A DNA stretch of 64,000 nt from the NCBI GenBank assembly GCA_902798825.1, contig CADBYI010000003.1, positions 1,993 to 65,992 of the forward strand, read 5' to 3'. The position numbers and the translations under genes are program-made. Within the stretch, counting starts at the first letter, position 1; every line of letters starts with the position of its first letter. The notes under the pieces were generated by a model that saw only the letters and a program-made list of their open reading frames with translations, made no database searches and was not told the origin of the DNA. Of this stretch, positions 2,359-58,719 are shown one piece after another. The stretch comes from an uncultured Eubacteriales bacterium (GTDB taxonomy: Bacteria > Bacillota > Clostridia > Christensenellales > CAG-138).

Positions 2359-2632
2359 AGAACCGAGGCATTCCTCGGTTCTCAGCTTGTCAAAAAACCT
2401 TTTGACAAGCTGAGCAGGCTGTCAGCAAAGGATGGTAGAAACGGCGTTCTTCGCCCCGAATCTGTACAAAGGTACTGCAAGAGGGCGAAAACGCCGTTAA
2501 TTTGCGGCATCTCGTTAAAAAGAAATGGCGGCATGCGCCATTTCCACCTATATGTATACTCCTGTCCATTTTTTGCCGCAAATGGTCTGCCGCCTTTTTC
2601 GACAGCCTGAGAACCGAGGCATTCCTCGGTTC
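2359..2632 (+). repeat. Terminator-embedded structured repeat, copy 1 (core 2382..2609; duplicated 23-bp hairpin at 2359..2381 and 2610..2632)
   Basis: Core shares long conserved blocks with 37015..37261 (reverse strand) and 49637..49862. Flanks are identical copies of AGAACCGAGGCATTCCTCGGTTC. Only the distal copy is followed by a T-tract (CTTTTGTTTTG). Confidence 0.9.
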
Positions 2633-2673
2633 CTTTTGTTTTGCACAATGGGCTGACGAACGAGGGTAAAGTG

Positions 2674-36992: not shown

Positions 36993-37283
36993 AGAGGAGC
37001 CTTTCGGCTCCTCTCAGGCTGTCGAAAAAGGCGGCAGACCATTTGCGTCAAATAAATAGATGGGCGGTCTATGGATCGCCCCCACAGAACTAAAGGTTGA
37101 AATGGCGCCAGATGACGCCATTTCTTTTGAATAGGTGCCGCAAATTAACGGCGTTTTTCCCCTCTCGCGGTACCTTTGTACAGCTTCGGGGGAAAGAACG
37201 CCGTTTCTGCCATCCTTTGCTGACAGCCTGTTCTGCTTGTCAAAAGGTTTTTGACAAGCAGAGAGGAGCCGTTTGGCTCCTCT
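36993..37283 (-). repeat. Terminator-embedded structured repeat, copy 2 (core 37015..37261; duplicated 22-bp hairpin at 36993..37014 and 37262..37283)
   Basis: The reverse complement of the core aligns with copies 1 and 3. It lies directly after the groEL stop (37301). On the minus strand only the distal hairpin is followed by TTTTG. Confidence 0.9.
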
Positions 37284-37300
37284 TGCGTGTCTGTATGGGA

Positions 37301-40099: not shown

Positions 40100-40110
40100 A
40101 TGTTCCTCCC

Positions 40111-41142
40111 TTACAGTTTCATATCCCGAAAGGCATCGGACATCCCCGATACCAGATGCCACTGCCGCTTCATGTAGGCCCGCAGGGGCTCCACAGAGCT
40201 TGCATAGGCGGCAAGGACGGCCTTAGGGTCATCGAAGTGGTCCAGCATGGCTGTTGCCAGCTGGTGGCCGCTCTCAATGGCGGAGGACACGCCTTCGCCC
40301 ATGGGGTTGAGAAAGCCCGCCGTTTCCCCAGCGAAGAAGACCCGCCCCACGCCATGATCGATGACGCAGCCGGGCTGGACCCGGTGCATGAGCCACCGGT
40401 CTTTTTTCAGCTCCCGCTCTATCCTCAGGCCATGTCGGTCCTGCATATATGCAATGAATTTTGAGAAATATTCATTGACCTGATCGCTGTCCCGGACGGA
40501 CACGCCCATCACCAGTTGCCCATCCTTCACGTTGAACCAGGCGTCGTACTGAGACAGGTCCGATTGGAGCCAGGCATAGAAATAGTGAGGGTCCAGGTCG
40601 ATGGTGCCCCGGTTATAGGTCTGATAGGTGGTGATGAACTTAGGCTCCCTCCCCGTAAGCTTCCGCTTCAGCATCCCCGTGACGCCCTCGCCGTCTATGA
40701 GGTATGGAGCCTGCTCGGTGTAGGTCCGCCCGCAGCTCTTCAGCGTCACAGTCACGACGCCCGCCCTTTCCTCGCAGGCAATGGCCGCCGTATCGTCCCG
40801 GATCTCCGCCCCGGCGCTGGCCGCCTTGTCCGCCAGCCACTGGTCGAAGGTGCTACGCCACACATTGCGCCCGCTCTGCTCGAAGCGAAAGGTATTGCCC
40901 CTGTCGTCCGTCAGGATCACGCCCCGATTCTCCGTGGGGGTGCACATGGTCGCTTCGGGAACGGGCTCTCTGAAATATGCTTCCACCAGGTCCAGGGTCT
41001 TTTGGATGAGTTGGCCGGAGCAGGACTTGTATCGGGGCATTTTGAAGCGTTCCACCAGCAGTACCCGGTAGCCCTTCTCGGCCAGGGTCCTGGCGGCGGT
41101 GCTGCCCGCCGGTCCCGCTCCGATAACGATGGCGTCGTACAT
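40111..41142 (-). CDS. NAD(P)/FAD-dependent oxidoreductase (geranylgeranyl reductase-like)
   Basis: MYDAIVIGAGPAGSTAARTLAEKGYRVLLVE is a dinucleotide-binding N-terminus. 343 aa. Confidence 0.8.
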   Translation of the reverse strand: MYDAIVIGAGPAGSTAARTLAEKGYRVLLVERFKMPRYKSCSGQLIQKTLDLVEAYFREPVPEATMCTPTENRGVILTDDRGNTFRFEQSGRNVWRSTFDQWLADKAASAGAEIRDDTAAIACEERAGVVTVTLKSCGRTYTEQAPYLIDGEGVTGMLKRKLTGREPKFITTYQTYNRGTIDLDPHYFYAWLQSDLSQYDAWFNVKDGQLVMGVSVRDSDQVNEYFSKFIAYMQDRHGLRIERELKKDRWLMHRVQPGCVIDHGVGRVFFAGETAGFLNPMGEGVSSAIESGHQLATAMLDHFDDPKAVLAAYASSVEPLRAYMKRQWHLVSGMSDAFRDMKL

Positions 41143-48151: not shown

Positions 48152-49599
48152 AGATACAGTTTGAAAGAAACCATCTACGCCGTCTTGCGGCTTTTCTCGC
48201 CGCAGTGACGGCGTTCGTCGTTTTAGCGCCGGCAGGATTCGCCACCGACAAGCCGGACCTGTCGAGTTTTCCCGAACGGAACGTGATCCTGTCCACCGGC
48301 GATGCGCCAACCGTCAGCGTAAATGGCCTGGAAAAGAACGCCGACGAGCGGGCCTACCCCGCCAGCATCACAAAGGTGCTCACCGGTTTGGTGGCTCTCG
48401 AGCAGGGCAACATGGAGGATTTGGTGACCATCTCCGCCCATGACGTGGATCTGGCCAGCGCCAACACCAAGATCGGCGTGAAGGAAGGCGAGGTCTATAA
48501 GCTGGGGGACCTCATGTACGGCATGCTCCTGCCCTCCGGAAACGACGCCGCCCGGGCCGTGGCCGAGCAGGTGGGTGGTTCGGAGGAAGGCTTTGCTGCA
48601 CTCATGAATGAAAAGGCCCAGGCACTGGGCATGACCAACAGCCATTTCACCAACGCATCCGGCCTTCACGATGACGGCATGTATACCACCGCACGGGACC
48701 TGGCCATCCTCGGCGCGGCGGCGGCTCAGAATGAGGCCCTTTGCAAAATACTGACCACGCCGAATTACACCCTTCAGGAGCAGACGAAGGGCCGTTCTGT
48801 CAGCGTCAGGAACATCGACCGATTGGTGAACGAGCCAAGACCCGGGGAGTATGAGAAGGTCTCCGCCCTGTACCCCTGGTGCGTAGGGGGCAAGACCGGC
48901 AGCACCAACGCCGCCGGCCGCACCTATATGGCCATGGCCCGCTACAGCGGCGTCACCCTGGTCTGCGTGCTGTTGGGGGACAAGGTCCCTACCTCCGGCA
49001 CCAAGGGCACGAAATATGACAAGATCATCGCCAACCGCTTCCTGGAGGCGAAGAACCTGTTTGAATATGGCTATTCATATCTCTTCCCCCTGGTGAACGT
49101 GCGCACGCTGAAGGACGAGGGATTGCCGGTGGCATTCGAAGGTGCCGTTCAGAAGGGCGAGGAAACCCTGTCCGTTCCCACCATGGTGGAGGATGTGGAC
49201 GCCGTCGTGTCCATGTACCTGCCGGCCCGCCAGGCGCTGCTGGAGAAAGACCGGATTCGGGCCCAGATCTCCCAGCCGGAGGTGACCGTGCCCATTGCAG
49301 CCGGAGCCCCGGCCGGCGAAGTGTCCTATTTCTATGAGGATCGGTTGCTGTTCACCCTTCCCCTGGTGTTTCAGTACGGGCTTGAGCCGGACCCCACGCC
49401 CTCCCCCGCCCCCATCCTGCAGGTGGAAAAGCGACCCCTGCCCTCCCCCGGAGAAACAGAGGTCCCCGTCCAGGAGATACAGACGGAGCCAGAGACGGCA
49501 GCACCGCCGTCCATACAACTTCTCTGGTACGTCCTCCTTCCCCTTCTTTTGGTGAGCGCTGTCTTCGTCCTCTGCCTGATGAAACGGCGGAAACGATAA
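48148..49599 (+). CDS. D-alanyl-D-alanine carboxypeptidase (S11), second tandem paralog
   Basis: ASITKVL (SxxK), PSGND and GGKTGST motifs. C-terminal Pro-rich linker and TM anchor. ATGA overlap with the first paralog. Confidence 0.85.
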   Translation: MKIQFERNHLRRLAAFLAAVTAFVVLAPAGFATDKPDLSSFPERNVILSTGDAPTVSVNGLEKNADERAYPASITKVLTGLVALEQGNMEDLVTISAHDVDLASANTKIGVKEGEVYKLGDLMYGMLLPSGNDAARAVAEQVGGSEEGFAALMNEKAQALGMTNSHFTNASGLHDDGMYTTARDLAILGAAAAQNEALCKILTTPNYTLQEQTKGRSVSVRNIDRLVNEPRPGEYEKVSALYPWCVGGKTGSTNAAGRTYMAMARYSGVTLVCVLLGDKVPTSGTKGTKYDKIIANRFLEAKNLFEYGYSYLFPLVNVRTLKDEGLPVAFEGAVQKGEETLSVPTMVEDVDAVVSMYLPARQALLEKDRIRAQISQPEVTVPIAAGAPAGEVSYFYEDRLLFTLPLVFQYGLEPDPTPSPAPILQVEKRPLPSPGETEVPVQEIQTEPETAAPPSIQLLWYVLLPLLLVSAVFVLCLMKRRKR

Positions 49600-49613: not shown

Positions 49614-49886
49614 AAGCACCGCCAGCAGCGGTGCTTCAGCTTGTCAAATACCTTTTGACAAGCTGAGCAGGCTGTCAGCAGAGGATGGCAGAAACGGCGT
49701 TCTTCGCCCCGAAGCTGTACAAAGGTACCGCGAGAGGGCGAAAACGCCGTTAATTTGCGACATCTCTATTCAAAAGAAATGGCGGTTTACGCCATTTCCT
49801 CCTACCAGTGATTCTTCAAATGTATTTGTCGCAAATGATCTGCCACCTTTTTCGACAGCCTGAAGCACCGCCAGCAAGCGGTGCTT
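49614..49886 (+). repeat. Terminator-embedded structured repeat, copy 3 (core 49637..49862; duplicated hairpin at 49614..49636 and 49863..49886)
   Basis: The core aligns with copies 1 and 2. It sits between a convergent carboxypeptidase gene and metK. The flanks are AAGCACCGC-loop-GCGGTGCTT with a 1-nt loop indel. Confidence 0.9.
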
Positions 49887-58642: not shown

Positions 58643-58719
58643 CTGGGTGTAGCGCAGTTTGGTAGCGTGCTTGAATGGGGTTCAAGAGGCCGGAAGTTCA
58701 AATCTTCTCACCCAGACCA
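58643..58719 (+). tRNA. tRNA-Pro (anticodon GGG), CCA encoded
   Basis: Manual cloverleaf: acceptor CTGGGTG/CACCCAG, D stem GCGC/GCGT, anticodon stem CTTGA/TCAAG with loop A-T-GGG-G-T (G37), T arm GGAAG-TTCAAAT-CTTCT, then A-CCA. Confidence 0.9.

Follow-up and report, generated by a model that had tools for sequence, protein, structure and literature searches.

Background

IS1272 and TnSha1, two staphylococcal elements of the IS1182 family, insert at DNA hairpins, often confirmed transcription terminators, which are chosen by structure and without sequence consensus (PMC4923244, PMC5678879). The same hairpin can serve as a target repeatedly and in both orientations, and IS1272 is reported to remove it wholly or partly and to generate no target-site duplication (PMC4923244, PMC5678879). 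Palindrome targeting by some IS1182 members is ascribed in PMC4923244 to Siguier et al. 2015. The 4-bp repeat of ISPse1, another member (PMC3281130), shows the family to be heterogeneous. [quoted passage not shown] The present study concerns a 64,000-nt stretch of contig CADBYI010000003.1 from an uncultured Eubacteriales bacterium (the window), in which a non-coding element of ~230 bp occurs three times, each copy being bracketed by a direct duplication (22–24 bp) of one locus-specific GC-rich hairpin. At an estimated probability of about 85 %, this element is a MITE, i.e., a non-autonomous derivative of a hairpin-targeting IS of the IS1182 family. In the ISfinder table, direct repeats of IS1182 range from 0 to 60 bp, a span with which the duplications described here would agree.

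Copies in the window and their duplicated terminator hairpins

The three copies are 226–247 bp long and share ~80–87 % identity (~80 % mean column identity in a three-way alignment). Their coordinates (Table 1) agree to within 1 nt with those of an original prediction made from the letters of the window, which had described a repeat family with imperfect inverted repeats at its ends. These repeats are real (CAGCTTGTCAAAAA / CAGGCTGTCGAAAAA), and the three-way alignment contains all blocks listed in that prediction: the left hairpin CAGCTTGTCAAA.ACCTTTTGACAAGCTG, a ~95-nt block, the hairpin GAAATGGCG...CGCCATTTC, a variable stretch and the right end GCAAATGGTCTGCCGCCTTTTTCGACAGCCTG. A core 23-mer, GGCGAAAACGCCGTTAATTTGCG, is present three times at ≤2 mismatches versus 0.00 expected occurrences (100 shuffles). 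The neighbouring genes were likewise correctly recognized as unrelated: an unassigned open reading frame (ORF) of 122 aa (copy 1), groEL (copy 2) and the gene of an S11 D-Ala-D-Ala carboxypeptidase (copy 3), which ends at 49599, upstream of the element. Since they are unrelated, an origin of the three copies by local segmental duplication together with their flanks, which the prediction had named as a possible outcome, is excluded. The proposed position after a stop codon and in the orientation of the gene holds within the window and not everywhere: loci L070 and L072a (L-numbers denote fetched loci) show the opposite polarity, and copies in a metagenome-assembled genome (MAG) from goat reticulum are antisense beside a pyruvate kinase gene.

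The bracketing hairpins correspond to the intrinsic terminators of the genes located upstream. At all three copies, a T-run is found only 3' of the right-hand hairpin. The interval 49614–49886, to which the prediction referred, is the exact span of the hairpin pair around copy 3. At copy 1, the duplication comprises 24 bp with 1 mismatch and folds at -14.9 kcal/mol; at copy 2, it comprises 22 bp, and both of its 2 mismatches are located in the loop. Elsewhere, duplicated hairpin pairs sometimes differ by an inverted loop (TTT versus AAA in L154; TATCTGTG versus CAGATATG in L169/L173), which suggests that loops flip-flopped inside the palindromes once the element had inserted; copy 2 may owe its loop differences (36993–37014 versus 37262–37283) to the same process.

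Occurrence in rumen genomes and metagenomes

An 18-mer scan of representative genomes detected the family in MAGs of rumen Clostridia, and the MAGs carrying the conserved core are labelled Christensenellales, Oscillospiraceae, Clostridiales or Clostridia. The goat-reticulum MAG contains more than 30 copies, the majority of them at the ends of contigs. Overall, the element is abundant in rumen Clostridia. Additionally, 34 loci were retrieved by scanning metagenome contigs with the right-end 24-mer. Gap-free flanking duplications of 22–32 bp were found in 14 out of 17 independent full-length rumen-metagenome loci, all 14 being complete hairpins (folding at -12 to -26 kcal/mol), and in two more of the 17 the duplicated hairpins differ only by a loop indel. 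The length of the duplication is not a fixed number and tracks that of the palindrome. In L077 and L079 (32 bp), the A/T pairs formed by the A-run with the T-run lie inside the repeat, and the part of the T-run left unpaired is excluded from the duplication. Exact duplications are found in L059, L065, L077 and L079, which are taken as the most recent insertions. Repeated use of one target is seen in L072, where a single hairpin is present three times and separates a truncated from a full copy, and nested insertion in L068 and L069, where the target was the P5 hairpin (Table 1) of a resident copy.

The element thus sits at GC-rich palindromes, mostly intrinsic terminators, with a complete palindrome on both sides. 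An IS1272-type insertion that replaces the hairpin was considered as well and is ruled out by these complete hairpins. The locus of copy 3 recurs with identical copies in four other assemblies (L048–L051; the L051 copy is cut by a contig end). Carboxypeptidase orthologues from related species (78 % identity) are followed by a 60–70-bp spacer with a single bidirectional terminator hairpin and no element; neither this hairpin nor the gene downstream is the one present in the window.

Assignment to the IS1182 family

The element does not itself encode a transposase. Its ends (CAGnnTGTCnAAAAA) are characteristic of the IS1182 family, the left one being built as a terminal hairpin. No match to plasmid and phage collections was obtained by blastn with the whole element; its 35-nt right end matches a Brevibacillus borstelensis plasmid at the end of an annotated IS1182-family IS, ~110 bp from the transposase gene. 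The boundaries of this IS (L099) are CAGGCTGTCGAGAAA... and ...TTTCTCGACAGCCTG; its flanks consist of GGGGGCGCAGAGCGCCCT (left) and GGGGCGCAGAGCGCCCT-TTTTT (right), i.e., of the duplicated hairpin GGGGCGCAGAGCGCCCT with a T-run only after the right copy. Its transposase gene (L099 2059–3389) is split near 2847 into two overlapping ORFs (194 aa and 262 aa) and could contain a frameshift or be a pseudogene.

For comparison, Brevibacillus NZ_CP144923.1, Bacillus subtilis NZ_CP032858.1, B. pumilus pBP-T2 and Alkalihalophilus (A.) pseudofirmus OF4 ('ISBspe1 family') were used. The annotated IS1182-family elements of B. subtilis, A. pseudofirmus and B. pumilus possess the same ends together with the same terminal hairpins; their hairpin duplications measure 19, 20 and 28 bp. 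The transposases of B. subtilis and A. pseudofirmus (L100, L101) score 486 and 505 bits against the NCBIfam model NF033551 (transpos_IS1182; cut-off 270 bits). Throughout L099–L102 the IS ends read CAGGCTGTCGAGAAA / CAGCTTGTAGAGAAA, and the MITE ends CAGCTTGTCAAAAA and CAGGCTGTCGAAAAAGG match these and further bona fide IS1182-family ends (L099–L102, L154). The design of the terminal hairpin recurs in L120 (CAGCTTGTCGACAAAGTCGACAAGCT) and at the ends of L100.

A profile-guided scan of IMG/VR contributed 52 more loci, yielding a total of 41 complete ISs (4 from plasmids, 37 from IMG/VR). Gap-free duplications of a whole, perfect hairpin (15–40 bp) flank 27 of these 41 copies, and further IS copies have the same duplication with loop differences. 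In L100–L102, L129, L132, L140 and L154, the IS copies end in a slightly differing inverted repeat of the same kind; nearly identical to the MITE ends are those of L154 (CAGCCTGTCGAAAAAGG), L129 (CAGCCTGTCGAAAAAG) and of L140 and L132 (CAGCCTGTCAAAAAAG). In L129, L132, L140 and the gut-metagenome loci L167–L176, a small inward-facing hairpin with T-run directly follows the transposase-proximal end. A different MITE of ~170 bp with an unrelated interior was detected in L091 (IMGVR_UViG_3300006201_000011, a contig classed as viral); it combines the same terminal repeats (CAGAGTGTCGAAAAACC ... CCTTTTTCGACAGCCTG) with a duplicated hairpin (GGAGAGGTTAGCAAACCTCTCC).

Since the ends and the duplication of an entire hairpin are shared with IS1182-family ISs, the window element is to be regarded as a MITE of the hairpin-targeting IS1182 clade; this clade, to which the element belongs, takes in ISBspe1-like and IS660-like elements. 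Thus, the earlier view that the repeat could not be assigned to any IS or MITE family no longer holds, and the non-autonomous mobile element, one of the options offered there, is strongly supported: terminal inverted repeats and target-site duplications are present, independent insertions are numerous, and ends and duplications are of the type seen in annotated IS1182-family ISs. The statement that the window lacks a transposase stands as far as IS1182-type enzymes are concerned, for which tblastn with three transposases retrieved no match in the window or in any of the fetched loci (780 kb).

Other searches for a partner IS had similar outcomes. Homologues of the L140 transposase led to 13 gut-metagenome IS loci, which have only the ~15-nt terminal repeat in common with the MITE; the B. 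subtilis transposase yielded Bacillaceae-like homologues throughout, which did not lead to a rumen partner. Among the 34 metagenome loci, no larger element with the same ends was found, and the large ORFs recurring among the loci are orthologues only. A scan for duplicated hairpin pairs 40–6000 bp apart recovered no IS; the pairs detected belong to the MITEs and, in L068, to an unrelated family of hairpin repeats.

Full-length IS1182-family copies with unequal flanking hairpins are L133, L144, L145, L127, L124 and L169–L173, and L169/L173 as well as L170/L172 share sequence beyond the apparent right end. Recombination between copies, IS1272-like hairpin replacement or a longer true element are possible causes.

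Proposed insertion mechanism

The way in which hairpins are duplicated suggests that the element integrates at an extruded cruciform or hairpin. A DDE transposase would be provided in trans by a full-length IS1182-type element located elsewhere in the genome; this cognate IS would be bounded by CAGCTTGTC... and ...GACAGCCTG and share the subterminal GGCGGCAGACCATTTGCGGC. The target would be recognized by structure and not by sequence, as an extruded cruciform or hairpin with the two feet of its stem side by side. The transposase would then join the two 3' ends of the element at the two stem feet, and gap repair would duplicate the whole hairpin. Joining at the stem feet would explain both the variable length of the duplication and the low cost of insertion: a hairpin would be left for either neighbouring gene, rendering the insertion nearly harmless and permitting a high copy number. 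As the first hairpin is devoid of a T-run, upstream transcripts would be expected to read through it, to cross the element and probably to stop at the second hairpin. The internal hairpins may be inward-facing terminators, as beside the ends of full-length family members, or alternatively protein-binding sites or RNA.

Several points weigh against a MITE inserted in this way. The cruciform and the staggered joining are inferred steps in a family without an established transposition mechanism, and IS1272, the one studied member, deletes part of the hairpin rather than duplicating it. The cognate full-length IS was not found in the window, the fetched loci or the 13 extra gut-metagenome IS1182 loci, and no examined IS shares subterminal or internal sequence with the MITE. 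Several full-length ISs carry different hairpins on their two sides, and one of the 17 full-length element loci (L031 = L076) has a hairpin on the left only. In the goat-reticulum MAG, there are copies with diverged ends (GGCCCCCG...) and no obvious hairpin duplication. Copies truncated at the 5' end are common and are covered by a DDE transposase only via later deletion or nested insertion. Finally, no exact empty site (same hairpin minus the element) was recovered among the orthologous carboxypeptidase loci.

Conserved core and alternative explanations

The interior of the element was aligned for 18 diverse copies (220 columns), resulting in a consensus fold with five helices. This core (~170 nt, P1–P5) folds with a z-score of -13.5 relative to shuffled sequences. 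Standard pairs occupy 97.3 % of the cells as compared to 41–52 % with the 3' partners slid, and 23 of 50 pairs are changed on both sides, versus 5–9 when slid; none of 500 shuffles reached 23. Compensatory changes account for 13 of 21 pairs in P3 (helices 2 and 3) and for 6 of 9 in P5 (helix 5); 8 of 10 pairs are invariant in P4 (helix 4). Even the most conserved stem covaries, AACGGCGTT/AACGCCGTT being replaced by AGCCGTTTT/AAAACGGCT in the metagenome-scan loci L058 and L060, and within the window copy 2 has compensatory changes in the left hairpin and P3. Moreover, the core is kept in MAGs in which the ends have diverged. Hence, the core is under real structural constraint.

From this constraint, a functional structured RNA could be proposed as the main role of the element (stabilizer of the 3' untranslated region (UTR), terminator module or small RNA), with the transposon ends serving as its vehicle or the copies being RNA genes. 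The very stable fold, the five helices kept with their compensatory pairs across rumen MAG lineages and a core that outlasts its ends would agree with this proposal, as would a U-G pair retained at one position in 10 of 18 sequences and the polarity relative to the T-run, which, by our reading, is the same in ~11 of 13 decidable MITE copies and shows no such bias in full-length ISs, found both ways. The ~11:2 ratio hints at orientation-dependent selection. The pairing data do not decide for RNA, however: on the element strand, ~13 G-U cells stand against ~8 A-C cells (hand count from the pair table), an asymmetry so weak that the covariation separates neither strand and RNA level nor RNA from DNA hairpins. 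At the DNA level, hairpins characterize this transposon family, its ends as well as its targets; the most invariant stretches lie inside helices (P4, base of P3), where protein-binding DNA sites would fit equally well; and the L091 MITE joins the same ends to a wholly different interior. Searches of Rfam at the gathering threshold and at E ≤ 10 found no match to the element (best: GcvB, 17.4 bits versus a threshold of 42), and a scan for sigma-70 promoters across copy 3 detected none. An RNA as the principal function is therefore considered rather unlikely. To be distinguished from it is a tentative and similarly doubtful extension in which the core would be a selected cargo of the MITE, i.e., a structured RNA or a bidirectional terminator/insulator placed in the 3' UTRs of numerous rumen-Clostridia genes; this would explain compensatory retention across lineages, survival past decayed ends and the ~11:2 orientation bias.

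Insertion of a retroelement related to short interspersed elements (SINEs), by target-primed reverse transcription with a nick at the hairpin foot priming cDNA synthesis from the RNA 3' end, would account for the variable length of the duplications, for the many copies in which only the right (3') end is kept (L061, L081/L086, L084/L062; tandem 3' fragments in the goat-reticulum MAG) and for L046 and L085, in which direct repeats (31 and 28 bp) flank the copy despite its 5' truncation. It is nevertheless highly improbable. The terminal inverted repeats are identical to those of ISs with DDE transposases and come with the same duplications, whose length equals that of the hairpin, a structural rule and not a random stagger. 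No reverse transcriptase was present among the ORFs inspected beside the copies, and there is no 3' tail. The left hairpin copy of L085 is 3–4 nt short, as expected from a later deletion, and some apparent truncations are resident copies split by nested insertion (L068, L069).

Strong hairpins near both ends and a site 3' of genes are general features also of other hairpin repeats, i.e., IS200/IS605-type elements, orphan TnpB guide-RNA scaffolds, REP/BIME, attC sites, retron RNA and IS110 bridge RNA, and the rod-like fold generally recalls a retron non-coding RNA. IS200/IS605 elements, however, have neither target-site duplications nor terminal inverted repeats, both of which are present here, and a fixed tetra- or pentanucleotide would be expected 5' of the insertion, whereas the left flanks share none beyond the hairpin foot. 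TnpA, TnpB, reverse transcriptase, integrase and IS110 recombinase were not noticed in the inspected ORFs, the dedicated search of all loci having been for IS1182-type transposases. With ~230 bp, the element far exceeds the length of REP, and Rfam, which holds models of the IS605-orfB, retron and HEARO types, gave no match to it. Membership in any of these classes is accordingly regarded as negligibly probable, and the IS1182-derived MITE is retained as the preferred reading.

Anatomy, variants and further observations

The features of copy 3, of the other two copies and of the bracketing hairpins are compiled in Table 1. The apical loop of P3 is the place where the truncations in L046 and L085 start and at the same time the site of a ~115-nt insert in L047 and L082.

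Table 1 Coordinates of the element copies, their target hairpins and the internal features of copy 3 in the window
Feature	Position	Strand	Sequence and remarks
MITE copy 1	2383..2609	+	227 bp
Left target hairpin, copy 1	2359..2382	+	AGAACCGAGGCATTCCTCGGTTCT
Right target hairpin, copy 1	2610..2633	+	AGAACCGAGGCATTCCTCGGTTCC; followed by TTTT
MITE copy 2	37015..37261	-	247 bp; 3' of groEL; variable segment longer
Left target hairpin (element orientation), copy 2	37262..37283	-	AGAGGAGCCAAACGGCTCCTCT; also tabulated as AGAGGAGCCaaacGGCTCCTCT
Right target hairpin (element orientation), copy 2	36993..37014	-	AGAGGAGCCGAAAGGCTCCTCT; also tabulated as AGAGGAGCCgaaaGGCTCCTCT; followed by TTTTG
MITE copy 3 (copy of the original prediction)	49637..49862	+	226 bp
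Left target hairpin, copy 3	49614..49636	+	AAGCACCGCCAGCAGCGGTGCTT; A-run upstream, no T-run after; terminator of the carboxypeptidase gene
Left terminal hairpin	49637..49665	+	Terminal inverted repeat CAGCTTGTCAAA and inverted subterminal copy TTTGACAAGCTG
5' strands of outer helices P1, P2	49668..49691	+	CAGGCTGTCAGCAGAGGATGGCAGA; third, internal copy of the terminal-repeat motif; helix 1
Long hairpin P3	49693..49751	+	AACGGCGTTCTTCGCCCC ... GGGCGAAAACGCCGTT; apical mini-hairpin GTACAAAGGTAC
Helix P4	49752..49836	+	AATTTGCGAC / GTCGCAAAT; encloses P5 and a variable AT-rich stretch
Hairpin P5	49776..49798	+	GAAATGGCGGTTTACGCCATTTC; terminator-like on the minus strand (hairpin, then T-run)
Right end	49839..49862	+	TCTGCCACCTTTTTCGACAGCCTG; reverse complement = terminal inverted repeat CAGGCTGTCGAAAAAGG
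Right target hairpin, copy 3	49863..49886	+	AAGCACCGCCAGCAAGCGGTGCTT; one extra loop A; followed by TGTTG

The element is structured differently in the strain variants L046 and L047. At L046 4650–4680, orthologous to window 37172–37290, a variant of copy 2 lacks ~83 nt at the start of the element; the left repeat of this variant comprises the whole terminator and 9 additional bases (AGAGGAGCCattcGGCTCCTCTTTTGCTTGA), extends through the T-run and recurs over 31 bp in the right flank. The L046 allele does not follow from that of the window by simple deletion and is not fully explained. A sub-family (L047 4585–4865; L082) carries the ~115-nt insert after GGTACCGCG. In L047, moreover, the right-hand hairpin is another one, and metK is preceded by an additional gene of the PIG-L family; since the L047 contig is 99.7 % identical to the window on the left and 95 % on the right, it is possibly an assembly chimera. 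The 5' truncations of L046/L085 and the inserts of L047/L082 are attributed to deletion and nested insertion.

Other intergenic repeats were observed in L068 (2690–2920, 6640–7100), L063 (60–130) and the goat-reticulum MAG loci (e.g., L016 1800–1960). In one of these families, the hairpins GGGGAGGGGCTTGCCCCTCCC and CCTTCCCCCGGGGGGGAAGG form arrays; a second consists of the motif CCCTCCGCTCGCTTCGCTCGGTCGGGATGACAAG, which recurs beside the MITE copies.

As compared to L046, a 97–98 %-identical assembly of the same locus, the window contains an extra segment of ~1 kb (40100–41139) with one gene, encoding an FAD-dependent oxidoreductase (PF01494); no repeats or IS features were noticed at its borders. 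This segment was considered as a possible IS and rejected on account of its gene content. A tRNA gene (58643–58716) represents the sole Rfam match in the window.

Implications for target choice and genome annotation

Across dozens of independent insertions, the length of the duplication (15–40 bp) is set by the secondary structure of the target rather than by a constant stagger. In the open literature searched, hairpin targeting in the IS1182 family is described for IS1272 only, with loss of the hairpin. Through the insertion, hairpin and T-run become separated on one side, and each neighbour retains a hairpin. Numerous 3' UTRs, the one of groEL among them, thereby gain ~230 nt of strongly structured sequence, which may affect read-through, mRNA stability or antisense termination. 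The element explains frequent contig breaks in MAGs of rumen Clostridia, and it can be annotated by the signature CAGnnTGTC...GACAnnCTG bracketed by a duplicated terminator.

Comparison with known systems

The element constitutes a new MITE family, the IS1182 family itself being already known; to our knowledge, no IS1182-derived MITE family has been described in the literature searched. With the IS1182-family ISs of Bacillota it shares terminal inverted repeats on the pattern CAGnnTGTnGAnAAA, ends formed as terminal hairpins, terminator-like palindromes as targets, the duplication of whole hairpins (15–40 bp) and a T-run that stays with one copy only. These ISs differ in having 1.5–1.7 kb and a DDE transposase of ~450–480 aa, as opposed to ~230 bp and no transposase gene; the interior of the element, with an extra internal copy of the terminal repeat and two conserved hairpins, has no detectable similarity to any IS examined. 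IS1272 and TnSha1 likewise target hairpins and differ by the reported hairpin loss, whereas the hairpin of the present element remains intact and is duplicated. Correia, RUP, BOX, SPRITE, ERIC and RPE resemble the element in their terminal inverted repeats, stable folds, frequent co-transcription with neighbouring genes and nesting in one another. The target-site duplications of classical bacterial MITEs are short and fixed (TA for Correia) or absent, whereas the one generated by the rumen element is a complete hairpin of variable length.

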